Assembly: GCA_963741065.1 (NCBI GenBank)
Contig: CAVUGV010000018.1
Span: 44,733 to 108,732, forward strand
Length of the DNA: 64,000 bases
Origin: an uncultured Verrucomicrobiae bacterium
GTDB lineage: Bacteria > Verrucomicrobiota > Verrucomicrobiia > Chthoniobacterales > UBA10450
Direction: 5' to 3'
Positions 8,860-64,000 of this stretch are shown here, one piece after another; within the stretch, counting starts at the first letter, position 1; each line of letters begins with the position of its first letter. The notes beneath the pieces are model-generated. The model searched no databases and had not been told where the DNA came from. It worked only from the letters and a program-made list of their open reading frames with translations. The translations under genes were made by a program, and so were the position numbers.

Positions 8860-9281
8860 AAAATGCCGATTTGACGCTTCAATCGTTTCAATCGCTTTAA
8901 CTCGGAATCATGTCCTACATCGAGTTACACGCATGCAGCGCCTTTAGTTTTTTGCGCGGCGGCTCTTTCCCCGAGCAATTAGCTGAAGTCGCAGCGGAAT
9001 TGGAAATGCCGGCGATGGCGTTGCTTGATCGCAACGGCGTTTACGGCGCGCAACGATTTTCCGTCGCCGCGCGCGAGCACAACGTGCGCGCGATCATCGG
9101 CTGCGAATTGTCGATGGAAGACGGCAGCATTTTGCCGGTGCTGGTCGAAAATCGCACCGGTTACAAAAATTTGTGCGAACTACTCACCCAGGCGCATTTG
9201 CGCAGCGAAAAAGGAAAATGCGTGGTGCGTTGGGGTGAACTGCCGCAGTTCGCAGAAGGATTGGTAGCGCTTTTGGGATCG

Positions 9282-9409
9282 GGGAGCACAGGCTGCCAGC
9301 CTGTAGCTTCCGGCAGCTTGCCGGACGCCGGGTGCGAGGGCGTGCGCGTGATTCGAAGAGGTTTGCGGCAAGCTGCCGCAAACAACAGGCTGGCAGCCTG
9401 TGCTCCCCA
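9282..9409 (+). repeat. family-A palindromic element, copy A2, translated in frame inside dnaE2
   Basis: GGGGAGCACAGGCTGCCAGCCTGT ... ACAGGCTGGCAGCCTGTGCTCCCC are near-perfect terminal inverted repeats. The host ORF stays open and DnaE2-like on both sides. Confidence 0.85.
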
Positions 9410-11651
9410 GAACGCAGAAGATCGCGCGCGGTTTTTGATTGACGCGTTTGGCCGCGAAAATGTTTTCGTCGAAATTCAGCGGCATTTCATTCGCGGCGAG
9501 GAACGGGTCAATCGCGAACTGATCGATCTAGCGCGTGCACATCGATTGCCGCTTATCGCCACGAACGGCGTGCAATACGCGAAGCCGTACGGACGCGAAG
9601 TGCTGGATGTTTTCACCTGCATTCGCGAACACACGCATCTCGATGCTGCTGGCAAATTGCTGACGCAAAACGCCGAGCGCCATCTGAAGAGCGATCGCGA
9701 AATGCGAGCAATTTTCGCGGATTTGCCGGAAGCAATTGAAAATACATCGCGCCTGGCCGAGCGGCTCACGTTTTCGCTTGAGAATCTCGGTACGAATTTC
9801 CCGAATATCCCGTGCCGGCCGGACACAGCATGGATTCATTTTTGCGCACCATCGTCTGGTTCGGCGCGCAACAACGTTACGCCGCGATCAGCGCAAAAGT
9901 GAAACGCCAGCTCGAGGAAGAACTCGCGCTGATAACGCAAACTCGGGTTCCCCGGCTATTTCCTGATTGTCTGGGACATCGTCAATTTCTGTCGCGAACA
10001 CAACATCATGGTCCAGGGCCGCGGCAGCGCCGCCAACAGCGCAGTTTGTTATTGCCTCGGGATCACGCCGGTTGATCCGGTTGAAAATCATCTCGTCTTC
10101 GAACGATTCCTCAACGAGAGCCGCAAAGGCTGGCCGGATATCGATCTGGATCTTCCCAGCGGCGATCGGCGCGAAGCGGTGATCCAGGAAATTTATCGCC
10201 GCTACGGCAAACACGGCGCGGCGATGACCGCGAACGTGATCAGTTATCGCGGACGCAGCGCCGCGCGCGAGATCGGCAAAGCGCTGAATTTTTCGCCGAG
10301 TATTATCGATCGCTTTTCGCATCTGTTTGCGAACGGCGATTTTCCGCACACGACTCGAATTGGAATCACAGATCGAGCAGGCCGGTTTGCCAAAAATCAT
10401 CCGCGGATGCCGGCATTCATTCGACTGTATCACGCGATCTACGGCTTGCCGCGGCATCTCGGCCAGCATTCCGGCGGCATGATTATCTGTCAGAACAAAC
10501 TGAGCTCATTTGTGCCGCTGGAAAACGCCTCCATGCCGGGCCGCGTCGTCGCGCAATGGGACAAGGACGATTGCGAAGATCTCGGCATCGTGAAAGTCGA
10601 TCTGCTCGGGCTCGGGATGATGTCGGTGATGCAGGATGCGTTTGAGCTTTGCCGTGAACGCGGGCGACCTCTCGATCTGGCTCACATTCCAAAAGATGAC
10701 GCGGCGACTTTCGAGATCATGCAGCACGCCGACACGATCGGCGTTTTTCAAATCGAAAGCCGCGCGCAAATGGCGACGCTGCCGCGGATGAAACCGGAAT
10801 GTTTTTACGACGTCGTGATTGAGGTGGCGATCATTCGCCCGGGGCCAATCCAGGGCGACATGGTGCATCCTTATCTCGCGCGGCGCGCCGGCGAAAAGAG
10901 CCAATCACGTATTTCGACGAACGACTGAAGCCCGTGCTACAGCGCACTCTTGGCGTGCCGTTGTTTCAGGAACAAATGCTCAAGATCGCGATGGTCATGG
11001 CGGATTTTTCCGGCAACGAGGCCGAGGAGTTGCGACGCGCACTGAGTTTTCATCGTTCCGAGGAACGAATGCAAGAAAGTGAGCGTGAAATTGCGCGCGG
11101 CCATGGAGCGAAAAGGCGTCGCGCCGGACAAAATTGAGAAAATCATTCAATCGATCTCGTCGTTTGCGCTTTACGGGTTTCCCGAATCGCACGCGATCAG
11201 TTTCGCCATTCTCGCTTACGGCAGCGCGTATTTGAAAGTGCATCGCGCCGCCGGAATTTTACGCGAGCCTGTTGAACAATCAGCCGATGGGTTTTTACAC
11301 GCCGGCCACGATTGTGAAAGACGCGCAGCGGCATGGGCGTAAAGTGCAAGCCGGTTTGCGTCATGAAGATCGGACTGGCGCTGCAGCGTTGTTGACGACG
11401 ACACAGTTTCGACTGGGGTTTTGCGTCGTGAACGGATTGCGGCAGGAACACGCCGAAGAACTCGTCAGGCAACGGCAAGATCGACAATTTGAGTCGTTGG
11501 AAGATTTCAAGCGGCGAGTTCCTCTGTCGAAAGACGAATTGCGCACACTGGCAGAATTAGGCGCGCTGAATTGTTTTGCCGAACATCGCCGCGCGGCGAT
11601 GTGGAAAGTGGAAGAAACGCTGCATGATGATTTGCTCGATCGCACGACTCC

Positions 11652-11781
11652 GGGGAGCGCAGGCTGCCAGCCTGCAGTTTGCGGCAGCTTGCCGCAAACA
11701 TCTCGCACACGATGCGTGCAAACACCCTGAAGAGCGTTCCGCAAGCTGCTGGACGCGGCAGGCTAGCAGCCTGCGCTCCCC
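11652..11781 (+). repeat. family-A palindromic element, copy A3, inside dnaE2, with in-frame TGA and TAG
   Basis: GGGGAGCGCAGGCTGCCAGCCTGC ... GCAGGCTAGCAGCCTGCGCTCCCC. The flanking dnaE2 segments (11272.. and 11806..) share one frame. Stops at 11728-11730 and 11764-11766 lie inside the element. Confidence 0.85.
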
Positions 11782-12253
11782 AGAAAAGAATCGCCCCTCG
11801 CGCCAATGACCCTATCCGAGCGTGTGCGCGCAGATTACGAAACAATGAATCTGACGACCGGACCGCATCCGATGAAACTGTTGCGCGAAAGTTTGCCGAA
11901 TATTTGGCGCGCGATCGATCTTGTTCACGCGCGCCATGGCTCAACCATTCAGATCGCCGGCAACGTGATTTGCCGTCAGCGTCCCGGCACAGCGAAAGGA
12001 TTTGTTTTCATCAGCCTGGAAGACGAGACCGGCGTTTCAAATGCAATTGTCGAGCCAGATCTGTTCGAACAATTTCGGCTCGTCATTACCGAGGAAGCGT
12101 TTCTGCTCATCGAAGGCGAAGTGCAAAATTCAGACAACGTCGATTTTGATCAAAGCGCGCGACATCAGGCCGCTCGCACACCTGCCCGCAATGCTAGCGA
12201 TGCAGGCGGGCGAACAACTCGTCGGAAGCGAGTCGCACGATTTCCACTAATGT

Positions 12254-25674: not shown

Positions 25675-28046
25675 ATGAAAAACCGTGTCATCCCGAACGC
25701 AGTGAGGGACCTCTCAAGAGGACATGGGTTACACAAATTACTGTGTGTGATCCGCGCTTCGTGGGTGATGTCCCTCGCGTTGCTCGGGATGACCGTGTGG
25801 TTCGCCTGGCTGCTACTCCCGAAGCCGCCGTTGCTTGAGGGCATCTCATTTTCCCAATGCGTTCGTGATCGCAACGGAAAACTGCTGCGCGTCACGCTGA
25901 GCGGTGACCAGAAATTCCGCATCTGGACACCGCTGCGCGAGATTTCAACCGCATTGATCGATGCGACGCTGCGATTTGAAGACAAATATTACCGGCATCA
26001 CCCCGGAGTTAACCCGCTGGCATTACTGCGTTCGGCTTTGAATCTGCGACCAGGTCACGCACATAACGGAGCCTCCACCATTACGATGCAACTGGCTCGG
26101 TTGCGTTATCATCTGCGCACCCGCACCCTCAGCGGAAAGTTTGTTCAAATTGTTCGCGCGCTTGAACTGGAGCGGCATTACTCGAAGGACTGAAATTCTT
26201 GAAGCCTACCTCAATCTCGCGCCCTACGGGCGGAACATCGAAGGCGTGGGCGCGGCCAGTCAGATTTATTTTGGCAAGACTGCCGCGCATTTAACCAGGC
26301 CTGAATCAATTTCGCTGAGCGTCATTCCGCAAAGCCCGACCCGACGCGCGTTGTTTGTCGATCAGGATAACGGCGCGCTCAACGCCGCGTTATCGCGATT
26401 CGGCAGGCGAGACGCACGCCTGCCCTACAGCCAGGATGACTATGCTACTCTGGCGCGCGATTTTCGACCGCGCGCTTTAAGCGAACACAAACTTCTCGCC
26501 CCGCACTTTGTTCAGCAGGTGCTGGCGGCCGAGAAAGGCCGCGACGAAATCGTCACCACGCTCGATCTGGCAAAGCAGCAATTAATCGAGCGGCGGATCG
26601 CCGATTATGTTCGAACAAATCGCGGTCGCGGAATTCAGAATGCTGCCGCCCTGCTGGTCGATGCGCGCAACATGGATGTGCTGGCACAGGTCGGCTCGGC
26701 CGATTTCTTCAACGCTGACATACAAGGACAAGTGGACGGAACACGCGCGCCACGTTCACCCGGTTCCACTCTGAAACCGTTCGTCTATGCGCTCGCCCTC
26801 GAGCAGGGATTGATTCATCCATTGTCGATCCTGTCGGATGCGCCCCACAGTTTCGCGGACTACAATCCGGAAAATTTCGATCGCGAATTCGTCGGCCCCA
26901 TCCGCGCCAGTGACGCGCTCGCACGCAGTCGCAATCTTCCAGCGGTCGAACTCGCATCCCAGTTGCGTCATCCCACACTGTATGAATTCCTCCGGGGCGC
27001 GGGCATTAAATTGCCGCGCTCGGAACCGCTTTATGGATTGGCGCTTCCGCTGGGCGGGGCCGAAGTCACAATGGAAGACTTGGTGCGACTTTACGCTGCG
27101 CTGGCCAATAACGGAGAACTGCGTCCGCTTCGCCGCACATCGCGCGAGCTAATCGCGGCGCGGGGCCACTCGATCATGATGCCGGAAGCGGCGTTCCTGA
27201 CCCTGGAGATGCTTAACTTGCCACGACCCGAAATGGGCCGCGCTTATGCGGACCATGCCGCGCCGGTTTTTTGGAAAACGGGGACCTCCCATGGTTTTCG
27301 CGACGCATGGTCAATCGCCGTTTTCAATCACTATGTGCTCGCGGTTTGGATCGGAAATTTTGACGGCCGCGCCAATGGAACTTTTGTCGGGCGAATCGCC
27401 GCCGCTCCTCTCTTGTTTCAAATCATCGATAGTTTGCGCATGAGTTGGCCGGAACCGAACCAGCCGCATCTTCCGCCTCCGGGCGCAAATTTGAAACGTG
27501 TCTCTTTTTGCGCCGTCTCGGGCGATTTACCTGGGCCGTATTGCACTCAACAAGTCGAGGGATGGTTTATTCCCGGAATTTCTCCGATCAAACCCTGCGA
27601 TGTGCATCAGGAAGTGCTCGTCGATGCCATGAGCGGACTCCGCGTGGCGCAGGGATGACGGAACGCGCCAGCTCCGCCGTGAAGTCTATGAATTTTGGCC
27701 GACGGAGTTGTTGTCGATCTTTCGCCGGGCTGGAGTGCCGAGAAAATTGCCGCCGCCATTTTTGCCCGGAACGACTGCGGAATTCGTCGCGCGCAGTGGA
27801 AATGCGCCGCGAATCGTTTCGCCACCTGATGGGCAAAAGATTTTGCCGGCACCGGCCGGCGCAATACCCTTGCAAGCCAGGGCGGACGCTGATGTGCGCG
27901 AGATTTACTGGTTCGCGGGCAAAACCTTTATCGGCAGAGCCCCGCCGCAGGAAGTAATTTCATGGAAGGCGTCGGCAGGCCGATACGAATTGATCGCCTT
28001 GGACGACCATGGCCGCTCGGGCTCATCCGCGATTACGGTGCAATAG
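25675..28046 (+). CDS. pbpC: penicillin-binding protein 1C (transglycosylase/transpeptidase); two frame breaks (about 26150-26190, about 27655-27710); likely start ATG 25768
   Basis: GT51 motifs RFEDKYYRHHPGVNP, GASTITMQLARL, ILEAYLNLAPYG. Transpeptidase motifs STLKP, KTGTS. C-terminal PbpC-type domain (..IYWFAGKTFIG..). TM helix MSLALLGMTVWFAWLLL. Confidence 0.85.
25687..25793. repeat. family-B inverted-repeat element, copy B2, overlapping the pbpC start
   Basis: gtcatcccgaacgcagtgagggacctc ... gatgtccctcgcgttgctcgggatgac. The right arm contains ATG 25768 and the first TM codons of PbpC. Confidence 0.8.
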
Positions 28047-38419: not shown

Positions 38420-39213
38420 GGGGTGAAGCTGGCTGCTCGTGGCGACTGTGGGCGCGCGATGTCATTGCCCCATACAATTGTTGCGATTCCCCAAGCCAGA
38501 AACGAGTCGGGTTTGCCAGCGTTTGCGGTGTTTTGGGGAAAGCGGCAACGCGCAACATACAAGCTGGCTTGCTCGTCCAGCGCGGAGTCACCTGATGAAT
38601 TAATCGGAAAACAATAACGAACTTCTCCAAGCTTGCTCACGGCCACCCGGAACCGAATCGTTTCAGGCATCTCTTCATTGGATGCAGCAAAAGCTGGGTC
38701 TGGCAAGATCGGCGCGCCAAAAGCTTGAATCTCTTTGGAAAACGAAAGGGACGTTTTGGCAACCGTAACGGGAAGGGCGGGTTTCTGCCGGGCAAAGTGC
38801 ACCGCGCCTGGCGGCTGGCAACTCGGAATTCGCAAATCCCGCTCCAGCGGCGGAATATTCTTCAAAGTCGGCTCGACCGCGGAATAGGACGGCACGTGCT
38901 CAGCTTTTGGCAGTGCACGCAGCTTTGTTTCCTGCGGACGACGAGTTGTGAAAGCAAGCGCGGGATCTTCCGCATCGATCCAGCGAAGCAGCGTGCGACC
39001 TTCTTCGGAGGCGGGCGTGATCAACGCAACGCGGGCTGGCGGCGGCAGCAGCGCCACCGTTGGCGGATAAACAATTTGAAAAATGTAAAAACAGAGGGCA
39101 TGCGCGGCCAGAGAGATCGCCAGAAAGACTGTAATCGCTAGTTTTTCGCCGCGAGGCGAATCCCAGCTAAATATAAGCGGTTCGGCTGCGCTCTCGGAGA
39201 TGAGGCTGTTCAT
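38416..39213 (-). CDS. TonB-like energy transducer (weak)
   Basis: N-terminal TM, Pro-rich stretch (VYPPTVALLPPPA), C-terminal domain. Immediately downstream of exbB-exbD with a 4-nt overlap. Confidence 0.55.
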   Translation of the reverse strand: MNSLISESAAEPLIFSWDSPRGEKLAITVFLAISLAAHALCFYIFQIVYPPTVALLPPPARVALITPASEEGRTLLRWIDAEDPALAFTTRRPQETKLRALPKAEHVPSYSAVEPTLKNIPPLERDLRIPSCQPPGAVHFARQKPALPVTVAKTSLSFSKEIQAFGAPILPDPAFAASNEEMPETIRFRVAVSKLGEVRYCFPINSSGDSALDEQASLYVARCRFPQNTANAGKPDSFLAWGIATIVWGNDIARPQSPRAASFTP

Positions 39214-39614
39214 CGCGGTGGAGTCGCAGCCAACGCGACGGAAGTGATGCCGTGTTCAAGCGCAGAGTTTGCCACTTCGGCAACCGTTTCGTAGGAGGTA
39301 GAACGGTCCGCCTTGATGATAATCGATTCGTCCCTGCGCTTGGCTGCATCCAGTAACGGCCCGAGTTGCTCCATGGTTACTCGTTGGTCCTGGAAATAAA
39401 TGGCCGGAACTGCGCCGCCGGTGATGCTGATGATCTGCCGGCTGGTTTGCGGACCAAGCGTAAAGCGCGAGAAAGGCATCGAAACCGAGATGCCTTGTTG
39501 CAGGATGAAATTCGAACTGAGCAAGAGAAAGAAAACAAGCAGGAAAGCGACGTCCACCAGCGCGATAAGCACAAGCCAGGCAAAGTTGTAGCTCACTGTG
39601 CGGCTGAGTTTCAT
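39210..39614 (-). CDS. exbD: ExbD/TolR-family biopolymer transport protein
   Basis: 134 aa. Single TM with conserved Asp (LIALVDVAFLLVFF) and a periplasmic domain with ..IIIKADRSTSYETV.. Confidence 0.85.
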   Translation of the reverse strand: MKLSRTVSYNFAWLVLIALVDVAFLLVFFLLLSSNFILQQGISVSMPFSRFTLGPQTSRQIISITGGAVPAIYFQDQRVTMEQLGPLLDAAKRRDESIIIKADRSTSYETVAEVANSALEHGITSVALAATPPR

Positions 39615-39629
39615 GTGGACGCAGATTAA

Positions 39630-39767
39630 AGAATGACGAATTCCGAATGACTAATGATGAAATAATGACGAAGCTCGAATGACGAAAAACCGATGGTGGC
39701 CTTTACCTCTCTCTCTGCCTCGTCATTTGGATTTCCTTCGTCATTCGACATTCGTGCTTCGTCATTG
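39630..39767. repeat. long imperfect hairpin built from AATGACGAA words, between exbB and exbD
   Basis: Left arm gaatgacgaattccgaatgactaatgatgaaataatgacgaagctcgaatgacgaa. Right arm ctcgtcatttggatttccttcgtcattcgacattcgtgcttcgtcatt. Confidence 0.7.
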
Positions 39768-40523
39768 TTAGAGGTCTTGGCGTGCTTCAATCTCCCGTGC
39801 CATCTCTTCAGGTTGTTGAAAGCTGATGATGCCGCTGATCGGACGGCTTTCAGTTAACATGTGGACGATCTCGATCCCTGCGCGTTCCATATCATGAAGC
39901 ATCGTGTTTACGCGCGAAGAGAGATAGCTGTAAGCGACAAAAGTCGGAGTCGCTACGACCAGGCCGGCTGCGGTGGTCAGCAAACTCTTATACACCCCGC
40001 CGGAAAGCTCAGTCACTGTCGCATAACCACCGCTTGAAGCGATGGTCCCGAAGGCATCGATCATTCCTGCTACCGTCCCGAGTAATCCGAGCAATGGCGT
40101 CAGAAAAGCGATTGTAGCGAGCACGGCAAGAAACCGCTCCAGTTTTGGTACTTCGAGCTGGGCAGCTTCTTGCACGATATCGCGCAATTCCGCCCGTGGC
40201 GCATCGTGCCGGATAATCGCGGCGTGAATCACTCGCGCCACCGGCCCCGGTGTCCCGGCTGATTCATGCAGCGCCTCAGCGAAATTGCGACGCCGAATCA
40301 GGTTCGACAATCCCTTTAGAAATTCGCCGACATGAATACTGGCGCGGTGCAAGTAGAACAGGCGCTCGGCGAAGACAGCGATCGAGATGATACTGCAGCC
40401 CAGAATTGGCCACATTAACAATCCGCCTTTTTGGATGTAATCAATCACGCCGGTTTTTGTAACGCTCTTTCTCGACTGTGGCAAGCCAACAACCAAACGC
40501 ACAGCCTGCCGTGCGATACTCAA
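39768..40523 (-). CDS. exbB: MotA/TolQ/ExbB proton-channel protein
   Basis: 251 aa. ..LATIAFLTPLLGLLGTVAGMIDAF.. matches the family signature. Three TM segments. Confidence 0.85.
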   Translation of the reverse strand: MSIARQAVRLVVGLPQSRKSVTKTGVIDYIQKGGLLMWPILGCSIISIAVFAERLFYLHRASIHVGEFLKGLSNLIRRRNFAEALHESAGTPGPVARVIHAAIIRHDAPRAELRDIVQEAAQLEVPKLERFLAVLATIAFLTPLLGLLGTVAGMIDAFGTIASSGGYATVTELSGGVYKSLLTTAAGLVVATPTFVAYSYLSSRVNTMLHDMERAGIEIVHMLTESRPISGIISFQQPEEMAREIEARQDL

Positions 40524-52140: not shown

Positions 52141-53238
52141 ATGAATGCAGTGATTGCATGCGGAGGAACCGGCGGCCATCTTTTCCCCGGCATCGCTGTG
52201 GCGGAAGTGCTGCACGATCGCGGCCACGAAGTGATGCTGCTCATTTCCGAGAAGGATATTGACGCTCTGGCGCTTTCGGGTCGCACAAATTTTCGAGTCG
52301 AAAAACTACCCAGCATTGGGCTGCCTTCGGCATTTTCTCCAGCATTCTTCGGATTCATTCGCCGCTTTTACGAAAGCTTGTCACTTTGCCGGTCTCTTTA
52401 CCGTAAATTCAAGCCTCAGGTAGTCCTCGGCATGGGCGGATTCACTTCCACTGCGCCGGTGCTGGCGGGACGGATACGCGGAATTGCCACCTTCATTCAC
52501 GAATCAAACGCCATTCCCGGAAAGGCAAACCGACTGACAGCGCGGGTAGTGAATGCCGTCATGCTCGGCTTCAAGGAATGCGCGCCCTTTTTTCCAAAAA
52601 CGCACACGGAAGTCACCGGCACGCCGGTCCGGACCGAACTGGTGCGTTTGGATCGGAAAGTTGCGCGCCAAAAACTTGGGCTACACGAAGATCTTCCGAC
52701 GTTGCTTGTGATGGGAGGCAGCCAGGGTGCGAGCGGAATTAATCAGGCGCTGATCAAATCGCTGCCATTCCTGCAAGGTGTGCCGCTCCAGGTGATCCAT
52801 CTTTCCGGCGCGCGCGATGAACGGTTGGTCGCAGATAACTATCGCCGCGAAAATATCCCCGCTTACGTCGCCGCTTTTCATCATCGGATGGAAGAAGTGT
52901 ACAGCGCCGCCGATCTCGTTGTCGCGCGAGCAGGCGCGGCCAGCTTGGCTGAGTTCGCAGCTTTTTCATTGCCCGGCATCCTGATTCCGTTTCCCTACGC
53001 CACCAATGATCATCAAACGCGTAACGCAGAAATTTATGCTCGCGCTCAGGCAGCGATTCTCCTCAAGGAGTCAGAGGTCTCTGGCGAATTGCTCGCACGT
53101 AAGATTCGCGAGTTGATCCAGGATCCGCAACTGATTCAGCAAATGGCTGCCAATTGTTCGCGTCTGGCGCCAAAAGATGCAGCTGGGCGCGTAGCAACGA
53201 CGATGGAGAAATACACGAGTCATGAACCCCGCGTTTAA
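52141..53238 (+). CDS. murG: undecaprenyldiphospho-muramoylpentapeptide beta-N-acetylglucosaminyltransferase
   Basis: Intact 365-aa ORF. ..ACGGTGGHLFPG.AVA.., ..GGSQGA.., ..RAGA.S..E.. Confidence 0.93.
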   Translation: MNAVIACGGTGGHLFPGIAVAEVLHDRGHEVMLLISEKDIDALALSGRTNFRVEKLPSIGLPSAFSPAFFGFIRRFYESLSLCRSLYRKFKPQVVLGMGGFTSTAPVLAGRIRGIATFIHESNAIPGKANRLTARVVNAVMLGFKECAPFFPKTHTEVTGTPVRTELVRLDRKVARQKLGLHEDLPTLLVMGGSQGASGINQALIKSLPFLQGVPLQVIHLSGARDERLVADNYRRENIPAYVAAFHHRMEEVYSAADLVVARAGAASLAEFAAFSLPGILIPFPYATNDHQTRNAEIYARAQAAILLKESEVSGELLARKIRELIQDPQLIQQMAANCSRLAPKDAAGRVATTMEKYTSHEPRV

Positions 53239-55552
53239 AGAATGCAGTGCGCCCGCCGATCGCGTCCCACCGCTCGACTTGTCGCACTTTCTGACGCGTG
53301 AACAGCACCGGATCCATCTTATTGGCGTGGCCGGAAGCGGCATGAGTGGCCTCGCTGGGCTTCTGATCGAGCTTGGGCACGCCGTGAGCGGCTCGGACAA
53401 GGCCACTAGTACGGAGACGGAGCGATTGCAGCGGCTAGGCCTGCGGTTTCATGAGCAGCATCGTCCGGAGCATGCGGGCGCCGCCGATCTTGTCGTTTGT
53501 TCCTCCGCAATCAAAGGCGACAATCCGATTCTTGTGGCCAGCCGCGATTCCGGTAAACCGGTCGTGCGTCGCGCGGAAGCTCTGGCTGCAATCATGAGTG
53601 CAAAGCGCGGGGTTGTTATCGCCGGAATGCACGGCAAAACGACTACCTCAGCTATGACTGCACACGTGTTGCGAGAAGGCGGACTCCATCCATCGCATTA
53701 TGTCGGCGCCGAAATTCCGCTTCTCGGAACGAACGCACACTGGGATTGGCGCGGCGAATATTTTGTTGCTGAGGGAGACGAAAGCGACGGCACCCTGCGC
53801 TGCTTTCGTCCCGAGCACTCACTTATTCTGAATATCGAGGAAGAGCACCTGGATTTTTATGCCGATCTGGCTGCGATTGAAAATGTCTTTGGGCAACTCA
53901 TCGATCAAACGAGCGGAACAGTCTTCTACAACATTGACGATCCCAACACGGCTCGATTGTGTGTGAAACGCAACAGCGCTGTCTCTTACGGATTTTCGGA
54001 GAATGCCCGTTATCGCGGCATCAATGTCGAGCTGCGGGACTTCGGCTCGGTTTTTTGCGTTTATCGGCGCGGCCAAAAACTCGGCCAAGCGACCCTTAAT
54101 GTTCCCGGAGAACACAACGTGCACAATGCCCTTGGCGTGATCGCACTCGCCTCCGAGCTTGGAATTCCATTTGAGAAGATTGCGGCTTCCCTCCGTAAAT
54201 TCGAGCACGCGCGGCGCCGGTTTGAGATCAAGTATGAGAGCGATCGTTTTTTGCTTGTTGACGATTACGCGCATCACCCCAGTGAAATTCGCGCTACGTT
54301 GAGGACCGCGCGAGGCACTGGTCGCAAACGGGTGCTGGCCATATTTCAACCTCATCGCTATTCCCGCACGAAAGCGCTGCGCAGCGAGTTTGGCTGTGCC
54401 TTTGATGAGGCTGATCGCGTGGTGGTCACAGATGTTTATCCTGCGAGCGAACCGCCGATCCCTGGAATCAGCGGGCAGACGATTGTCGATGAAATGGTGA
54501 AACACGGTCATCGTGCTGCGAGTTACCAGCCGCGGTTCGAGCACGTGCATTGGGGTATCGGCAACGCGCTCGATGCCGGCGATCTCGTGTTGAGTCTCGG
54601 TGCGGGCAACATTCACGAGCAATTGTCGATCCTGGCTGCGGATCTGGTGATTGCCGAAAAGTTAAAGGCGATTGTCGGCGAAGAAGGCGACGTCCGCCTT
54701 TACGAGCCGCTCTCGAAACACACGACGCTGCGCGTAGGCGGCCCAGCGCAATTTTGGGTCGAGCCGCGAGACGAAAAGGCTTTTTCGGACTTAATTCGGT
54801 TTTGCCGGGATGAAAACCTGCCGCTTTTCGCAATGGGTCGCGGATCGAATCTTCTTGTACGCGACGGTGGCATCCGTGGTGTGGTTGTTCATCCATGCGG
54901 CGGCGATTTCGACAAGATCGAGGTCAACAGCTCCGAAATCACCGCAGGCGCAGGTGTAAAGTTGAGGGAAGTTGCTTATGCGGCGCGCGCGGCAAATCTC
55001 GGCGGACTCGAATGGATGGAAGGAATCCCGGGCGTAATCGGTGGTGGGTTGCGCATGAACGCCGGCGCGATGGGCGCTCAAACTTTCGAGAGCGTGACGC
55101 GCATTCGCTATCTCGACGCCGAAGGCAATCCGCACGCCAGGAATCGAGATCAGCTTGAGGTCTTTTACCGGCGGTTTCCGTTGCTGGAAAATAATTTTGC
55201 GATTTCGGCGACATTCCGCGCGCAGCCGGCCGAGCGTGCAGCGATTGATGGTCGCTTGCGCGAATCGCAGGAGAAACGGCGCACCACTCAGCCAATCGCC
55301 AAGAGTGCAGGCTGTATTTTTAAGAACCCCGGCAGTATTCCGGCAGGAAAACTGGTGGATGAACTGGGGCTGAAGAATTCGCGTGTCGGAAATGCGCGCG
55401 TGTCGGAGGTGCACGGCAATTTCATCGTGAACGATGGCGGCGCGACCGCAGCGGAAATGCTTCAATTGATCGACAAGATACAAAGCGCGGCGCGGGCAAA
55501 ACGTGGGATCGAGTTGGAGACTGAAGTGGAAATTGTCGGGGAGCCTGGATGA
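53222..55552 (+). CDS. murC: fused UDP-N-acetylmuramate--L-alanine ligase / UDP-N-acetylenolpyruvoylglucosamine reductase (MurC-MurB)
   Basis: Single intact 776-aa ORF. MurC part (IGVAGSGMSGLA.., GMHGKTTT, ..DDYAHHP.EI..) to about residue 470. MurB part from ..LSKHTTLRVGGPA.., ..GRGSNLL.., ..AGCIFKNP... Confidence 0.9.
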   Translation: MNPAFKECSAPADRVPPLDLSHFLTREQHRIHLIGVAGSGMSGLAGLLIELGHAVSGSDKATSTETERLQRLGLRFHEQHRPEHAGAADLVVCSSAIKGDNPILVASRDSGKPVVRRAEALAAIMSAKRGVVIAGMHGKTTTSAMTAHVLREGGLHPSHYVGAEIPLLGTNAHWDWRGEYFVAEGDESDGTLRCFRPEHSLILNIEEEHLDFYADLAAIENVFGQLIDQTSGTVFYNIDDPNTARLCVKRNSAVSYGFSENARYRGINVELRDFGSVFCVYRRGQKLGQATLNVPGEHNVHNALGVIALASELGIPFEKIAASLRKFEHARRRFEIKYESDRFLLVDDYAHHPSEIRATLRTARGTGRKRVLAIFQPHRYSRTKALRSEFGCAFDEADRVVVTDVYPASEPPIPGISGQTIVDEMVKHGHRAASYQPRFEHVHWGIGNALDAGDLVLSLGAGNIHEQLSILAADLVIAEKLKAIVGEEGDVRLYEPLSKHTTLRVGGPAQFWVEPRDEKAFSDLIRFCRDENLPLFAMGRGSNLLVRDGGIRGVVVHPCGGDFDKIEVNSSEITAGAGVKLREVAYAARAANLGGLEWMEGIPGVIGGGLRMNAGAMGAQTFESVTRIRYLDAEGNPHARNRDQLEVFYRRFPLLENNFAISATFRAQPAERAAIDGRLRESQEKRRTTQPIAKSAGCIFKNPGSIPAGKLVDELGLKNSRVGNARVSEVHGNFIVNDGGATAAEMLQLIDKIQSAARAKRGIELETEVEIVGEPG

Positions 55553-55553
55553 T

Positions 55554-56514
55554 ATGAAAGATCTGCCAAGAAAAATTGCGGTTCTCATGGGAGGCCCCGG
55601 CTCCGAACGCGAGGTTTCACTTGCCACTGGGCGAGGGGTATCGAAGGCGCTTCGCTCGTTAGGCGCGGAGGTGGCGGAAATCGATGTGCGGGACAAGGAC
55701 TTCCAATTACCCAGCGATGTCGATCTTGCGTTCATTACGATTCACGGAACTTTCGGCGAAGACGGCCAGCTCCAGAGAATTCTGGAACGCCACGGCATCG
55801 CTTATACGGGTGAGGGAGTAAATGGAAGCGAGATCGCTTTCGACAAAATTCGGACAAAAGAAAAATTTCGGGAACATGGAGTAAGGACTCCTCTCTGGGA
55901 AGTAATTCATCCCGGTCAGCGCCCAACGTTTCCGTTGCCGATCGTCGTCAAGGCCCCACGGCAGGGATCAACGGTGGGCGTCGTGATCGTGAAAAGTGAA
56001 GGCGAAATCGAATCCGCGATTAGTGAAGCCGCAAAGTATGGCCGCGAATTGTTGATAGAAAAATTTGTGATCCGGTCGGGAATTGACCATAGGTATCCTC
56101 GGTGACCAAGCCTTGCCCATTCTCGAAATAATTCCCAAGGGCGGCTTTTACGATTTCAACAACAAGTATCCGTTTCTCAATCCGCAGGCGGGCGGCGGAG
56201 CAGAGCATGTTTGCCCGGCGAAGATCGACGCCGCAAAAACAAAAGAGATTCAGGAACTGGCGCTCCGCGCATTTCGCGCAGCGGGTCTGCAGGTGTACGC
56301 GCGCGTAGACGCAATTTTGTCTGAGAACGGGGAGCCGTTTATTCTGGAGATCAATACCATCCCTGGAATGACCGAGGCCAGCCTCCTGCCCGAGGCCGCG
56401 GCTGCAGCCGGGATCAGCTACGTCGATCTTTGCGCCCGCATTATCGCGCTCTCCCGCCTTCGCCAAGGCTACGGCGGGCAAGCTCGCGCCAGAACAGAAG
56501 GGAGCGGGAGATGA
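55554..56514 (+). CDS. ddl: D-alanine--D-alanine ligase (frame break near 56075-56100; C-terminal tail built on repeat D2)
   Basis: ..IAVLMGGPGSEREVSL.., ..HGTFGEDGQLQ.., ..VVKAPRQGSTVGV.., then GRELTIGILGDQALP.., ..ILEINTIPGMT..S..P in the second frame. Confidence 0.88.
56454..56483 (+). repeat. family-D repeat, copy D2, at the ddl 3' end
   Basis: ccgccttcgccaaggctacggcgggcaagc, translated RLRQGYGGQA. Lies beyond the point where Ddl homologs normally end. Confidence 0.7.
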
Positions 56515-57613: not shown

Positions 57614-58822
57614 ATGGCGAGCAACAATTTGATGGTCGGTCTTGAGATTGGCACCTCCAAAATCTGCGTGGTCGTCGGGGAAAGCCGCACAGATGGCACT
57701 CTCAAAATTCTCGGTGTCGGCCAGACGCCGTCGCGCGGCGTGCGTAAGGGCGAGATTGTTGATTTTGAAACCGCGATGAAATGCGTGCACGAAGCAGTGG
57801 TCGATGCCGAGCAGAAAAGCGACGTGATGATCCGCAGTGTTTACGTTTCTGTCGCCGGGTCGCATCTGCAAAGTTTCAATAATCGCGGATGCGTGATGCT
57901 GCCCGAGGATCGCGATGAAATTGATGAGCAGGATGTCGAGGACGTGAAAATTAATGCGCGCGAGGTGAGTATTCCGGCGCAAAACGCGTTCCTGCATTCC
58001 ATCATTCAACATTACCATGTGGGTGGACAGAACGGCGTGCTGAACCCGATTGGCATGTTGGGTCAAAAATTGGAAGCCGATTTTCATATCATCCACGGCG
58101 TGCGCACGCGTATTCAAAATACCATCCGCTGCGTGAAAGAGCTGCCGCTGGACGTGGAGGACGTTGTTTTTGGCGGACTCGCTTCCGCGCAGGTGGTGCT
58201 CACCCAGCATGAAAAGGATCTTGGCGCGCTAGTGATCGATATTGGCGGCGGGACGACGGATTACGTGTTGTATGCCGACGGCGCAGTGAAACAAAGCGGT
58301 TGCCTGGCCGTGGGCGGCGACCACATCACAAACGATATCTCCATGGGGCTGCGCATCCCGATGGCGCGCGCGGAGAAATTAAAGATTGAAGAGGGCAGTT
58401 GCATCCTCGGCAATTGTTTGCCTGGCGAAATGATTTTGTTAAAGGACGATTCAGGGTTCGCTGGAAAAGAGATCGATCGGGAAACGCTGAACACGATCAT
58501 TCACCTGCGTATGCGCGAAGGCCTCGAGCTGCTCAAGCGCAGGCTCGAAGAGCAGCCGTATCTCAACTATCTCGGAGCCGGCATTTTCATTACTGGCGGT
58601 TGCAGCCTTCTTAACGGTATCGACCATCTAGTAGAGGAAATTTTCGAAATACCTGCGCACCTGGCGCACGCGCAGACAACATGGGGCGTAACGTCCGCAG
58701 TGGAGGATCCCCAGTTCTCGACGGCGATCGGCCTGGTCAAGTTCGCACAAGTGATGCAAACGGATCGGCCGCGGCGGGGATTCGGCCGGATGATCGGAAG
58801 ATTTTTCAGCGGAATGCGATGA
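57614..58822 (+). CDS. ftsA: cell division protein FtsA
   Basis: Intact 402-aa ORF. ..VGLEIGTSKICVVVGE.., ..VIDIGGGTTD.., ..ITGG... Confidence 0.93.
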   Translation: MASNNLMVGLEIGTSKICVVVGESRTDGTLKILGVGQTPSRGVRKGEIVDFETAMKCVHEAVVDAEQKSDVMIRSVYVSVAGSHLQSFNNRGCVMLPEDRDEIDEQDVEDVKINAREVSIPAQNAFLHSIIQHYHVGGQNGVLNPIGMLGQKLEADFHIIHGVRTRIQNTIRCVKELPLDVEDVVFGGLASAQVVLTQHEKDLGALVIDIGGGTTDYVLYADGAVKQSGCLAVGGDHITNDISMGLRIPMARAEKLKIEEGSCILGNCLPGEMILLKDDSGFAGKEIDRETLNTIIHLRMREGLELLKRRLEEQPYLNYLGAGIFITGGCSLLNGIDHLVEEIFEIPAHLAHAQTTWGVTSAVEDPQFSTAIGLVKFAQVMQTDRPRRGFGRMIGRFFSGMR

Positions 58823-59334
58823 CAATGAAGCACCAAGCTCCAACATCCAAGCACCAGAGAATTTCCAAGCAGCAAGCTGGGAAAGCCCCAAAGCGGCGTA
58901 ATGTAACCTTCAAGTACCCGGCAGTGTCGGACAGCACACTAGTTTTGAATGAGGCTCCAAACGGAAAAGAAGCCTCGAAGCATCCATTTGACTTGGAAGA
59001 GCGCACGGCGCGATTCGGCGAAGCAATCGTCCGCTTCTCGAAAAGGATTCCACGTAACCCCACAAATGATCGCTTAATTGATCAGTTGGTTGGGTGTGGA
59101 ACGAGTATTGGTGGAAACTACTGCGAAGCCAACGAGAGCGTTTCGAAAAAGGATTTTCGCCACATGATTTCTCGTTGCGTAAAGGAATCGAAGGAAACGA
59201 AATTCTTTCTTCGAATGCTTGCCGCTGCCGAACCGCAGCTTGCCGACGAAGCGCGCGACCATTATCGCGAGGCAAAGGAGTTGCATCTGATTTTCGCGAG
59301 CATTTTTCGGAAAACTAAGGGCCAGGCTTCATGA
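58819..59334 (+). CDS. four-helix-bundle protein (TIGR02436 / 23S rRNA intervening-sequence protein family); true start probably downstream
   Basis: Core ..FDLEERTARFGEAIVRFSKRIPRNPTNDRLIDQLVGCGTSIGGNYCEANESVSKKDFRHMISRCVKESKETKFFLRML.. fits the family pattern (..QL.R...SI..N..EA......DF......KE..ET..WL). Confidence 0.7.
   Translation: MTMKHQAPTSKHQRISKQQAGKAPKRRNVTFKYPAVSDSTLVLNEAPNGKEASKHPFDLEERTARFGEAIVRFSKRIPRNPTNDRLIDQLVGCGTSIGGNYCEANESVSKKDFRHMISRCVKESKETKFFLRMLAAAEPQLADEARDHYREAKELHLIFASIFRKTKGQAS
58831..58868. repeat. left 38-nt terminal inverted repeat of the four-helix-bundle cassette
   Basis: caccaagctccaacatccaagcaccagagaatttccaa. 31 of 38 positions match the reverse complement of 59356-59393. 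Confidence 0.75.
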
Positions 59335-59355
59335 GTGTGGCCACTGATTTGAGAT

Positions 59356-59393
59356 TTGGAGATTCTCTGGATGTTGGAATTTGGAGGTTGGTG
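59356..59393. repeat. right 38-nt terminal inverted repeat of the four-helix-bundle cassette
   Basis: ttggagattctctggatgttggaatttggaggttggtg. Ends 7 nt before the ftsZ start. Confidence 0.75.
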
Positions 59394-59400
59394 ATTAAAT

Positions 59401-60804
59401 ATGATTCAACTCAGTAAAAATTACAGTCTACCAGACCGCATGGCGGAATTTATTCCGGTAAAAGTTGTGAGCGTCGGTGGTGCCGGTTTAAACGCGCTCG
59501 ATCGAATCGTGCTCGACGGCTTGGAGAAAGCCGGCGTAGTTGCGATCAATACCGATGTGCAGTCCCTCACGAGTTCCGTGGCGCCGCACAAAGTGCAGCT
59601 GGGCCGTAATGTGACGCGCGGTTTGGGCGCGGGCGGCGACCCGGAGCTTGGTTATCAAGCCGCTGTAGAATCGACTGACGAAATTCGCGAAGCGCTCTCG
59701 GATGCAAATGTGATTTTCATTTGTGCAGGGCTGGGTGGCGGCACCGGTTCAGGCGCGGCGCCCTATGTCGCGCAACTGGCGCGTGAAGCCGGCGCGCTTG
59801 TGATCGCCTTTGTCACTCTTCCATTCACATTTGAGGGGAAACGGCGCAATGCGCAGGCACGAGAGGCGCTCGCACGGCTCAACGAGGTTGCCCACTCAGT
59901 GATTTGCTTCGAGAACGACCGAATGGGCGACATGATCGCGCCACACGCTGGAATTCATCAGGCGTTCGCGACGGCCGATATCACGATCAGTCAGAGCGTT
60001 CGCTCGATTGTGAACCTGATCCAGCGGCCGGGACTCATTCGCATCGGCTTCGATGATTTGCTCGCGGCATTGCGCGCTCACAATGGCCGTTGCTTGTTTG
60101 GCTACGGTGAAGCCGATTCAGACAATCGCGCGCACGACGCGCTCACGCAGGCGCTCAAAAATCCGTTGATGGATCGTGGCCGAATGCTGGCTGACGCCAC
60201 ACACGTTCTCGTGCAGGTGGCGGGTGGGCCGGGGCTCACACTCTCTGAAGTCGAAATCCTCATGCAGGAACTCGGCCGTCACGTGAGCGAGCAAACACAA
60301 ATTCTCTTTGGCGCCGCTGTGGACGGACGGCTGGGAGACCGGTTGAGCGTGACCATCATCAGCTCGCTCGCTGCGGAAGAGGATTTGATTTCACAATCCG
60401 CCGACTCGGGGACCTTCAGTAACGTGGCCACGCATCCGCCAGCCCAGGAGCAGCACCAACATCCCGCGCCACAGATTTATATCGAACCAGAACCAGTGGC
60501 GATGGAACCTGCGCCTCCGGAGGAAAGCATTTCGTTTGAAGAACCGGTGGCGACCGCGGAAGCGATACCGGCGTCTGGATTCGTGCCGAGTGAACCAGAG
60601 CCACTGGCAGTTAAGCCACAGAAAAAGACGGTCCCGCACAAGGAAGAAAAAGCACCGTCCGAAAAGTCTGCGCAGGCGAAGCAGGAAGTTTTGCAATTCG
60701 AGCCGGTCACGCGTGGCCGCTTTGAAAAAAGCGAGCCAACCATCGTCGAGGGCGAAGATCTCGACGTTCCGACTTATCTGCGAAAGAATATCAAAGTGAA
60801 GTGA
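59401..60804 (+). CDS. ftsZ: cell division GTPase FtsZ
   Basis: Intact 467-aa ORF. ..VGGAGLNA.., tubulin signature GLGGGTGSGAAP, long Pro/Glu-rich linker, C-terminal DLDVPTYLRK peptide. Confidence 0.95.
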   Translation: MIQLSKNYSLPDRMAEFIPVKVVSVGGAGLNALDRIVLDGLEKAGVVAINTDVQSLTSSVAPHKVQLGRNVTRGLGAGGDPELGYQAAVESTDEIREALSDANVIFICAGLGGGTGSGAAPYVAQLAREAGALVIAFVTLPFTFEGKRRNAQAREALARLNEVAHSVICFENDRMGDMIAPHAGIHQAFATADITISQSVRSIVNLIQRPGLIRIGFDDLLAALRAHNGRCLFGYGEADSDNRAHDALTQALKNPLMDRGRMLADATHVLVQVAGGPGLTLSEVEILMQELGRHVSEQTQILFGAAVDGRLGDRLSVTIISSLAAEEDLISQSADSGTFSNVATHPPAQEQHQHPAPQIYIEPEPVAMEPAPPEESISFEEPVATAEAIPASGFVPSEPEPLAVKPQKKTVPHKEEKAPSEKSAQAKQEVLQFEPVTRGRFEKSEPTIVEGEDLDVPTYLRKNIKVK

Positions 60805-62207: not shown

Positions 62208-62213
62208 ATGCCT

Positions 62214-62299
62214 GTCATGCTGAGCGAAGTCGAAGCATCTCTCAATTTAATTCCGCGGCAAATGAGAGTAAGAGATTCCTCGACTTCGCTCGGAATGAC
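62214..62299. repeat. family-B inverted-repeat element, copy B3
   Basis: gtcatgctgagcgaagtcgaagcatctc ... gagattcctcgacttcgctcggaatgac, in the divergent M20-polB intergenic region. Confidence 0.8.
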
Positions 62300-62317
62300 A
62301 CAAAAGTTTGTTGACCG

Positions 62318-64000
62318 ATGGAATTCGAGAAAAACACGCTGCTCTTTGGCGCTGATCCGACCTCGCGCATCGTCGCCATTGAGCTTGGCGAAACCGGGAC
62401 GGTGCGCGTTTATCGCCGGGAAAAAGATGGATCGACAATCGCCGACGTCGAGCCGTTCCATCCCTTTGTCTGGGCCGACAGCGACGTTGTCGATCTCGGC
62501 ATTGAAGCCGAGAAACTTCGCGGCGATCTGAAGTATGGCTGGCTGATCACCGTCGATAGCTGGAAGGAACTCATCGCGTTGCGGAACGGATTGAAGAATG
62601 CCGGGCGCGACTTCTTCGCGTTCACGGATCCGGTGCAGCATTACCTCACAGCCACAGGGCGCACATTATTCAAAGATCTGCCGTTTGAAGAATTGAAACG
62701 AATGCAGATCGAAGTGCTGCAATACGTGGCATCGGCTTCCAGCCGATCCGCTGAGGATCATCGGCAAGATGCCGATCCACGGCTGACAACGACACATCAT
62801 GAGCATTGCAATCTCGGACAACAGCGGCTGGGAAGAATTGCTCATTGTCGATCCAAACAACGTTGAGGAATCCGAACGAAAAGCGCTAAAGCGGCTTACT
62901 GCGCTTATCAAAGAACGCGATCCGGATGTGATCGAAGGTCATGATTTGTTTCGGATTCATCTGCCTTATCTCGTAGCCCGCTCAAAGAAACTGAAAACCA
63001 AGCTCGATTGGGGACGTACCCGCCTTCGCCAAGGCTACGGCGCGGCAGAAGGCGGCGGATTTTTGCGATCGCGGCCATCGCGACTTCAAATCGCGGAGAA
63101 GACCATCGATTATCCGAAGTTCACAATCGGTGGCCGGCATTTCGTTGATACGTTTTTGCTCGCGCAATTCTACGACGTCGGAATGCGTTCTCTTGCCGGT
63201 TTCGAACGGACGGGTGTCGCACGGCATTTCGATCTCTGTGACGACGAACAAATCTCAGCGCTTACAGGCAAAGAACTGGAGCGCGCGTATCTTGAGAATT
63301 CAGAAACGTTCCGGCGACGCGCGTTATGCGGCGTTCGAGAAGCGCGTGCCTTATCAGACCTGCTCAGTGCGAGCTACTTCATCCAGGCGCAAATTTTTCC
63401 GTACAATTACCAGGACGTCATTGTGCGCGGCAACGCCACGCGCATTAACGCGCTTTTCCTGCGCGAATATTTCCGGCAACGCCATTCCATTCCCGAGCTG
63501 CCGATGCCGCGCGCGTTCGAAGGCGGCTACACCGACATCTTCTTCACCGGCGTGGCGCGCAACGTCTGGCACTGCGACATCGCCTCGCTATATCCATCGG
63601 TGATGTTGCAGTTCGCGTGCTTCCCCGCAACGGATCAACTGCAAATTTTCAGGCATCTGCTTACTGACGTGCGCACCTTTCGACTCGAAGCGAAGGCGGA
63701 AATGCGGGCCGAACAAGATCCCGCCAAACAGCATCATCTCCAGGCGTTGCAAAACACGTTCAAGATTTTGCTTAACAGTTTCTATGGTTACCTCGGATTC
63801 GCACAGGGACATTTCGCTGATTTCGACGCAGCTGCGCGCGTCACCCAGATCGGGCGCGATCTGCTGAAGAAGATGATCGAATGGCTTAATGCTCACGGCG
63901 CGCAAGTGGTCGAGGTCGATACCGACGGAATTTATTTCGTGCCACCGGTAGACGTGGCATCGGCTTCCAGCCGATCTTCCTGAAGATCAGCGGCAAGACG
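62318..64000 (+). CDS. family-B DNA polymerase (PolB), 3' end beyond window; frame break near 62795; two palindromic inserts
   Basis: Motif A DIASLYPSVM, motif B KILLNSFYGYLG, motif C VVEVDTDGIYF. ExoI region reads RMQIE[insert]TTT. Confidence 0.85.
62726..62785 (+). repeat. family-C palindromic element, copy C1, in frame inside polB
   Basis: gtggcatcggcttccagccgatccgctgaggatcatcggcaagatgccgatccacggctg, translated VASASSRSAEDHRQDADPRL. Confidence 0.75.
63019..63055 (+). repeat. family-D repeat, copy D4, inside polB
   Basis: cccgccttcgccaaggctacggcgcggcagaaggcgg, translated RLRQGYGAAEGG. Outer CCGCCTTC/GAAGGCGG stem. Confidence 0.7.
63954..64000 (+). repeat. family-C palindromic element, copy C2 (cut by window end), inside polB just after motif C
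   Basis: gtggcatcggcttccagccgatcttcctgaagatcagcggcaagacg. The first 23 nt are identical to C1. Carries an in-frame TGA at 63981-63983. Confidence 0.7.

Follow-up and report, generated by a model that had tools for sequence, protein, structure and literature searches.

A four-helix-bundle gene enclosed by heptad-built inverted repeats in the ftsA-ftsZ spacer of a Candidatus Udaeobacter-like bacterium

The window, the whole 64,000-nucleotide (nt) stretch of contig CAVUGV010000018.1 analysed here, carries the dcw cluster of a Candidatus (Ca.) Udaeobacter-like soil bacterium (Verrucomicrobiota, Chthoniobacterales), whose FtsZ finds its top matches in Udaeobacter metagenome-assembled genomes (MAGs; 91-94% identity). 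The spacer between ftsA and ftsZ in this cluster is filled by a cassette in which an open reading frame (ORF) for a four-helix-bundle protein is enclosed by two complementary arms. We consider it probable that this cassette is the 572-bp long form of a Verrucomicrobiota-wide hairpin family, inserted in the ftsA-ftsZ spacer and tolerated there as a probably selfish passenger. Judged from the spacers of relatives, the insertion appears to date to the ancestor of part of Ca. Udaeobacter, and the cassette looks intact in this genome. The ORF, its repeats and their resemblance to the intervening sequences (IVSs) of 23S rRNA had been pointed out in a first-pass annotation of the window; the construction of the arms from heptads, the large family of ORF-less hairpins and the second role of the right arm as a conserved ftsZ leader go beyond it.

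Results

Arms of the cassette and their pairing

The cassette and its parts are listed in Table 1. Both arms are built from 7-nt units of the form AANNNCC, arranged as four units, an AGAG tetramer and three or four further units. Together with the start codon in front of it, the left arm (58825-58873) reads ATG, AAGCACC AAGCTCC AACATCC AAGCACC, AGAG, AATTTCC AAGCAGC. The reverse complement of the right arm (59396-59351) follows the same scheme, with AATCACC AACCTCC AAATTCC AACATCC, AGAG, AATCTCC AAATCTC; on the + strand this arm appears as GAGATTT GGAGATT CTCT GGATGTT GGAATTT GGAGGTT GGTGATT. The 38-nt inverted repeat reported in the first-pass annotation (58831-58868 against 59356-59393) withstood a recount, which gave 31 of 38 Watson-Crick matches and one G:U pair, and a repeat search extended it to 50 nt at 76%. 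Its score of 21 was reached by none of 1000 dinucleotide-preserving shuffles (7.7 ± 1.1). The minimum-free-energy fold of positions 58810-59410 pairs the two arms and closes the cassette (z = -6.3), and the arm duplex alone is computed at about -53 kcal/mol. The degenerate heptad pattern CCAANNNCCAANNNCCAGAGAANNNCCAA has two matches in the 64 kb, which are the two arms, against a chance expectation of 0.01.

Between the right arm and the ftsZ ATG lie 4 nt, and the arm holds two motifs resembling a Shine-Dalgarno (SD) sequence, GGAGG (59383-59387) and GGTGA (59390-59394). At the opposite end of the cassette, the TGA stop codon of ftsA (58820-58822) overlaps an ATG at 58819. An intrinsic terminator was ruled out, as no U-tract follows the stem, and neither a terminator-like nor a promoter-like site was detected on the + strand inside the cassette. 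An Rfam search over positions 58000-60000 returned no family match, rRNA included, and yielded sub-threshold hairpins of the miRNA-precursor type only. PADLOC gave no match.

Table 1. Features of the ftsA-ftsZ region and a related hairpin in the window
Feature	Position	Strand	Description and basis
ftsA	57614..58822	+	upstream cistron; matches to PF14450 and PF02491; ORF list
Whole cassette	58825..59396	+	start codon, left arm, ORF and right arm; 572 nt
Four-helix-bundle ORF	58825..59334 (or from 58819)	+	169 aa from ATG 58825; 171 aa from ATG 58819
Left arm	58828..58873	+	C/A-rich; inside the ORF; encodes KHQAPTSKHQRISKQ; includes the left repeat of the first-pass annotation
PF05635/TIGR02436 domain	58999..59316	+	hidden Markov model matches, 2RLD match, structure model, codon-position differences
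Right arm	59351..59396	+	G/T-rich complement of the left-arm heptads; includes the right repeat of the first-pass annotation
ftsZ leader	59383..59400	+	in and just 3' of the right arm: GGAGG, GGTGA, then AAAT; conserved where the rest of the cassette is lost
ftsZ	59401..60804	+	downstream cistron; matches to PF00091 and PF12327
Short heptad hairpin, AATGACG/CGTCATT class	~39629..39769		ORF-less; between minus-strand ORFs 39768-40523 and 39210-39614

Encoded protein

Profile searches bear out the description of the ORF as TIGR02436-like, with 54.1 bits for TIGR02436 (cut-off 24) and 38.6 bits for PF05635 (cut-off 33.8). The domain occupies residues 61-166 of the 171-aa reading, and a phmmer search matched the ORF to PDB entry 2RLD (E = 2.5e-8). 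In the AlphaFold2 model of the monomer, residues 1-54 are predicted to be disordered and residues 57-167 to form four helices (57-74, 79-101, 108-135 and 137-167), all with a predicted local distance difference test score above 90. The top fold found by Foldseek was 2RLD (TM-score 0.86, target-normalised), followed by 2GSC (0.81) and Avd (4DWL), and 8UBE was also matched. With both profile cut-offs passed and a fold like those of 2RLD and 2GSC, the cassette protein belongs to PF05635/TIGR02436.

Gene-bearing cassettes across Verrucomicrobiota

A scan with the ORF, run on one genome per species, found 476 relatives, and the best 80 loci, nearly all of them from Verrucomicrobiota, were examined; the names of neighbouring genes at these loci (preA-like and so on) were assigned by eye from translations. 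Apart from the fts loci themselves, none of these 80 has ftsA or ftsZ nearby. About 37-44 loci lie between a gene for a preA-like dihydropyrimidine dehydrogenase subunit and one for an mmsA-like aldehyde dehydrogenase (ALDH), and 33 of them have flanks of more than 60% identity. The remaining cassettes occupy preT-like/preA-like, preA-like/dihydropyrimidinase-like and DUF1553-/DUF1501-type junctions, a site after a small lipoprotein-like gene, and sites seen once; the best 80 loci represent at least 10 distinct intergenic contexts. The upstream gene is co-oriented with the cassette at 70 of 75 loci. Three junctions of an apparent pyrimidine-catabolism cluster, preT-preA, preA-ALDH and preA-dihydropyrimidinase, hold a cassette (L084-L143; for example, L101 1495-2050, L090 and L110). 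Four loci (L026, L036, L086 and L123) are labelled Nitrospirota, Alphaproteobacteria, Acidiferrales or Bifidobacteriaceae, on contigs that look like Udaeobacter or other Verrucomicrobia, and probably reflect binning contamination.

A flanking inverted repeat of 25-59 nt is present at nearly all of the roughly 78-80 loci examined, with matches such as 56/59 (L128), 53/56 (L112) and 36/36 (L104). The first-pass annotation had proposed a check of the flanks at other family copies; these proved competent for pairing at nearly all of 78 loci. Four heptads, AGAG and further heptads make up the arms in every case. The units vary (AAGCTCC, AAGCACC, AACATCC, AAACCCC), and AATGACG, AATGACC and AATGACT accompany the more distant proteins. 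The mean match score between arms is 24.9 within a locus, compared with 15.7 between loci and 7.8 for shuffled arms, and the value within a locus exceeds that between loci in 68 of 78 cases. When the loci are aligned on CCAGAGAA, the arms covary at the variable positions of the four outermost heptads (z = 3-5 per column), and the overall identity of 0.712, against 0.658, is reached by 0 of 500 shuffles. These ungapped inverted-repeat scores replaced RNAduplex calculations on 240-nt flanks, which were undiscriminating (self -137 versus cross-locus -120 kcal/mol, the antisense strand being slightly more stable).

The placement of the cassette is tight on both sides. In the 46 anchored loci, the first heptad follows the upstream stop codon at a median distance of 4 nt, and a median of 6 nt separates the final base of the arms from the downstream start codon; the former gap is -1 or -2 in nine of the 46, where an ATGA supplies the stop. 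The cassette replaces the entire intercistronic spacer, and the foot of its stem would place the upstream stop beside the downstream start. The commonest right-arm unit, GGAGCTT, is SD-like, and its left-arm counterpart is anti-SD-like.

At the preA-ALDH site, the divergence of the cassette protein is close to that of its neighbours (0.22 vs 0.24) and correlates modestly with it (Mantel r = 0.33; 0 of 2000 permutations), which suggests that these copies were inherited largely vertically and that complementarity of the arms was maintained. L096, from a different genomic site, groups with the fts copies in a clade nested among the Chthoniobacterales preA-ALDH copies, and the fts insertion is therefore secondary. 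Target-site duplications were looked for in 64 elements and not found: the longest direct repeat at the element ends averages 2.0 nt, against 2.7 nt in a shifted control. No transposase was seen among the clusters of flanking ORFs inspected, which were named by eye.

Heptad arms also occur next to such genes in other phyla. A Saprospiraceae MAG (L296 1440-2160, - strand) has a PF05635-like ORF with AATGACG/GATGACA units on one side and seven TGTCATC units on the other, and in a cyanobacterial MAG (L363 7560-8000) a heptad arm precedes a PF05635-like ORF, the locus ending before its 3' side. These arrangements suggest that the association of heptad arms with a PF05635 gene crosses phyla. A scan for (GACAGAT)n returned mostly unrelated loci, with an adjacent PF05635-like ORF at 2 of the 120 matches listed; the Coxiella IVS was not among them.

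Start of the ORF and coding constraint

The first-pass annotation placed the left repeat in the annotated N-terminal extension and the true start probably downstream of 58868. Comparison of the loci speaks against this. In 37 of 46 loci (p = 7e-11), the distance from the CCAGAGAA anchor in the arm to the conserved FDLEER codons is 1 mod 3, and the frame is kept although the linker between arm and domain ranges from 94 to 187 nt. Of 50 aligned ORFs, 34 have a start codon exactly 3 nt 5' of the first heptad; 23 of these codons are ATG. There is no conserved ATG further downstream, where every column of the 50 aligned ORFs holds three or fewer; the best alternative is a Leu/Val column with TTG or GTG in 24 of 50 (TTG at 58945 in the window). 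All four fts copies retain the ATGA overlap with the ftsA stop. Because of the conserved frame, the start-codon column and this overlap, ATG 58825 or 58819, at the left arm's outer edge, is the most likely start of the ORF, and the left arm would therefore be translated as a disordered N-terminal tail.

Differences at codon positions 1/2/3 are 0.20/0.13/0.58 in the domain, which is clearly coding, and 0.52/0.45/0.66 in the linker, which is weakly coding. In the arm they are 0.29/0.34/0.34, a pattern of constraint on the nucleotide sequence. The four-helix-bundle gene is under purifying selection.

ORF-less hairpins

An exact 22-mer from the centre of the arm occurs at a minimum of 119 loci, nearly all in MAGs labelled Verrucomicrobiota and often several times per genome. 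Only about 10 of these at least 119 loci enclose the four-helix-bundle ORF; about 90 are ORF-less, and a few carry other cargo. The ORF-less hairpins measure 95-190 nt and consist of four heptads, AGAG and three or four heptads around a loop of 15-130 nt, with minimum free energies of -60 to -100 kcal/mol. They are intergenic and typically lie 0-30 nt 3' of a stop codon, as placed by crude gene calls. Rfam holds no family corresponding to them. Gene-bearing and ORF-less forms together, the architecture recurs in about 200 independent loci. The arms of long and short forms have a similarity of 0.886 within a genome and 0.860 between genomes (p = 0.045); this is only marginally above the between-genome level, and no clear master-copy relationship between the two forms emerges. 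The window itself contains a short hairpin of another heptad class (Table 1), which abuts the stop codon of the 39768-40523 ORF and stops about 15 nt short of where the 39210-39614 ORF begins.

The ftsA-ftsZ spacer in relatives

The ftsA-ftsZ spacers of 81 related Ca. Udaeobacter loci were recovered for comparison. The full cassette is present in only four of them, namely the window, L081, L082 and L058 (on the same contig as L083). The four-helix-bundle proteins of the latter three are 86%, 77% and 72% identical to that of the window, and their FtsZ proteins 84%, 86% and 75%. The nearest relatives, with FtsZ identities of 91-94%, are without the cassette: their spacer is 16-18 nt long in L005 and L006, is filled by a hairpin element of about 210 nt of the GTCATCC...GAGGGACCTC type in L001, L002, L004 and L007, and holds a GGTAGGG-type hairpin of about 88 nt in L003. 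The cassette is an insertion, present in some relatives and absent in others, in line with the cassette raised as a possibility in the first-pass annotation. None of the four fts junctions shows a target-site duplication.

In 12 ORF-less spacers a remnant of the right arm is still recognisable and stops 0-5 nt short of the ftsZ ATG (e.g. L019: ...CTGGATGTTGGAATTTGGAGGTTGGTGATTAAAAC), left-arm similarity is kept in just three ORF-less spacers, and L080 carries an ORF-less heptad hairpin at this site. Across these lineages, identity is 80% in the 30 nt directly 5' of ftsZ, compared with 63-65% at the third codon positions of ftsZ, and this leader is the better conserved of the two in 57 of 66 pairs. 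We read the distribution as follows: a large Udaeobacter clade inherited the cassette from its ancestor, and later deletions, either repeated or a single one in a deep ancestor, removed it; the right arm would have persisted because it became the ftsZ leader.

Hairpins of at least three unrelated families occur in this spacer, a hot spot for such elements. The GC-rich hairpin of about 88 nt (GGTAGGGCGCGACCGCCGGGCGCGCC...GGACGGCCCGGCGGGCCGTCCCTACC) is found in L003, L053, L008 and about 20 other ftsA-ftsZ spacers, and ends 2 nt before the ftsZ ATG. Repeats of the GTCATCC...GAGGGACCTC type also occur elsewhere in the window, at 25687-25793 and 62213-62300.

Other observations in the window

Two copies of a further hairpin repeat (GGGGAGCACAGGCTGCCAGCCTG...) are located at 9281-9408 and 11649-11784, with arms of 43-44 nt that are 93% and 84% complementary. 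The ddl gene is represented by two overlapping ORFs (55503-56105 and 56083-56514), an apparent frameshift or assembly error. A gene that by eye resembles a family-B DNA polymerase is likewise split into two overlapping ORFs (62318-62866 and 62799-63983), each with the peptide ASASSRS near its end. A single ORF of 776 aa (53222-55552) resembles a murC-murB fusion.

Discussion

Relationship to known elements

The likeness to 23S IVSs noted in the first-pass annotation extends to the stem and its heptamers. The IVS of Coxiella burnetii has a 28-bp terminal stem in which RNase III cuts were mapped, three tandem GACAGAT heptamers just before the start of its S23p ORF, and a start region that lies within the stem, the SD sequence being removed by RNase III cleavage (PMC4990558). 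The cassette shares with the S23p-bearing IVSs of Coxiella, Leptospira and Brucella a PF05635 cargo and an ORF held in a long stem of terminal repeats; forms with and without the ORF exist in both, and, as in Coxiella, tandem heptamers lie in the 5' arm by the ORF start (58828-58873). By contrast, the cassette resides in a protein-coding operon between a stop and a start codon, and not in helix 25 or 45 of 23S rRNA. Its left arm appears to be translated and its right arm serves as the leader of the next gene. Its ORF is under purifying selection, unlike the Coxiella ORF, which is reported to be decaying. The cassette is an IVS-type element of mRNA operons, and stands outside the IVS class proper on the defining rRNA location.

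Among dispersed hairpins, the short forms find their nearest functional analogue in the Correia elements of Neisseria; the enterobacterial repetitive intergenic consensus sequences, or intergenic repeat units, of enterobacteria are comparable as well. Correia elements, like the short forms, are dispersed, measure 100-160 bp and are bounded by terminal inverted repeats; they are gene-adjacent and co-transcribed. Their hairpins are bound and either cleaved or protected by RNase III, which alters the expression of adjacent genes (PMC2649163). Correia elements share no sequence similarity with the hairpins described here, contain no ORF and duplicate a TA target, whereas the present arms consist of 7-nt units and no target-site duplication is seen. 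Repetitive extragenic palindromes (REPs) are stem-loops of 20-40 bp tagged GTAG or CGTC that are associated with a REP-associated tyrosine transposase (RAYT, Y1). They and the REPINs are found about 20 bp or less from ORF 3' ends, chiefly where the neighbouring genes are unidirectional or convergent, and sometimes supply the stop codon (PMC3733652). The hairpins of Verrucomicrobiota are likewise dispersed palindromic repeats with this placement and at times provide a stop codon too, but their arms are 45-60 nt of AANNNCC units without a GTAG tag, and the associated gene encodes a four-helix bundle and not a transposase. The many dispersed copies, ORF-less ones included, also recall MITEs (miniature transposable elements with inverted repeats) and other terminal-inverted-repeat transposons, from which the lack of a target-site duplication sets them apart.

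PF05635 proteins resemble Avd (PMC10053308), the accessory protein of diversity-generating retroelements (DGRs). The cassette protein shares fold and superfamily with Avd (4DWL and 8UBE are among the fold matches), at a sequence identity of 16-19%. Its direct neighbours are not a reverse transcriptase but ftsA and ftsZ, and metabolic-looking genes, judged by eye, at other loci. No template/variable repeat pair was seen, although no specific search for one was made. Integron attC sites and retron msr/msd were rejected as candidates, since the neighbours are ftsA and ftsZ and not an integrase or reverse transcriptase, and since the arms flank both sides of the ORF. A published description of these verrucomicrobial cassettes or hairpins was not found, most subscription journals lying outside the search.

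Proposed mechanism and the weight of the evidence

The cassette is probably transcribed within the dcw mRNA, since it has no terminator- or promoter-like site of its own. In this mRNA the arms would pair to a stem of about 40 bp (about -53 kcal/mol) that juxtaposes the ftsA stop with the ftsZ start and occludes both the cassette start codon and the ftsZ ribosome-binding region. Ribosomes passing from ftsA into the cassette ORF would open the stem. The closed stem may be a substrate of RNase III, and a cut would separate the ftsZ mRNA from the ftsQA mRNA, as occurs in IVSs. In the MS2 coat-replicase system, a stem with upstream translated sequence masks a downstream ribosome-binding site, and in the early genes of phage T7, RNase III sites between cistrons separate the mRNAs. 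The likeness to these systems would be a functional analogy only. A cassette of this design would do little harm to the operon and could therefore be tolerated, probably as a selfish passenger.

Several observations weigh against this account. The ORF-less hairpins, which make up most arm copies (about 90 of 119), are not tight against a downstream start, and therefore translational gating cannot be general; some heptad classes (AATGACG/CGTCATT) are also not SD-like. In relatives with a short spacer, ftsZ has a weak SD sequence or none. Where ftsZ is preceded by a remnant that includes neither left arm nor ORF, the stem is apparently not required for its expression, and these right-arm remnants are found in as few as two clades, so that the number of independent deletions behind them may be small. 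Among arm mismatches, G:U pairs are not in excess on the sense strand (84 versus 96 for the antisense equivalent, p = 0.41), and therefore selection at the RNA as opposed to the DNA level is not demonstrated. Transcription through the cassette, the stem in vivo and RNase III cleavage are all inferred.

The absence of a G:U bias bears on a serious rival, which we regard as unlikely on balance: that the hairpins are selfish elements at the DNA level, similar to MITEs or REPINs, whose arms are end-recognition sites or single-stranded DNA (ssDNA) hairpins for an enzyme acting in trans, the gene being cargo or an accessory and any effect on dcw RNA incidental. In its favour, these arms recur many times within a genome, both as ORF-less hairpins (95-190 nt) and with other cargo, the hairpin reads alike on both strands, at least 10 sites are occupied with the fts copy derived from the preA-ALDH lineage, and frequent internal deletion at the fts site is expected of unstable palindromic DNA. 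Against it, neither a target-site duplication nor a transposase beside any copy inspected (flanking genes being judged by eye) was seen. Conserved features of the cassette are, moreover, strand-specific (a start 3 nt before the heptad, a frame kept through the arm, and an arm end 0-10 nt before the next start), and at the preA-ALDH site the arms stay complementary across the phylum where the protein diverges to about the same extent as its neighbours.

Conservation of the right arm as ftsZ leader beyond the level of synonymous sites, purifying selection on the protein domain and the ATGA overlap with ftsA in all four fts copies would also suit a domesticated module, in which the cassette, or stem and protein, had been recruited to tune the ftsA:ftsZ ratio or the stability of ftsZ mRNA. 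This is very unlikely given that the cassette is lost in most lineages, the nearest relatives included, which have unrelated hairpins or spacers of 16-18 nt instead; the same cassette sits in unrelated operons, and nothing ties the protein to cell division. A last alternative takes the inverted repeat as accidental and the ORF it surrounds as called too long, the two forming no biological unit; the low complexity of the C/A- and G/T-rich arms is all that could be said for it. The shuffles, the rarity of the heptad pattern in 64 kb and the recurrence of the architecture at about 200 independent loci refute it and leave it with virtually no probability.

The selfish passenger remains the preferred reading of the cassette. 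A broader proposal, distinctly unlikely in our estimate, is that PF05635 pentamers are the trans-acting partners of a pan-bacterial class of heptad hairpins comprising S23p IVSs, operon cassettes and ORF-less derivatives. An Avd-like protein would here recognise the 7-nt units as RNA or ssDNA and protect, process or mobilise the elements. Mobilisation might proceed via an RNA intermediate, as Avd acts with a reverse transcriptase in DGRs, and the relationship would resemble that of RAYT and REPIN, except that the partner would be a non-enzymatic nucleic-acid-binding protein.

Significance

For annotation, the 'N-terminal extension' of the ORF is repeat-encoded, and dozens of spurious verrucomicrobial ORFs run through these arms. 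To our knowledge, the S23p/TIGR02436 family, with 5,331 matches, has no known function outside DGR Avd, and for more than 30 years it has been asked where 23S IVSs come from and how they move. A gene-in-hairpin unit with heptamer-built arms also exists between ordinary operon cistrons, here before ftsZ, and has a large ORF-less progeny. The IVSs thereby become one habitat of a broader class of elements, and a large family annotated without function is linked, together with the IVS puzzle, to an element class that can be tested.

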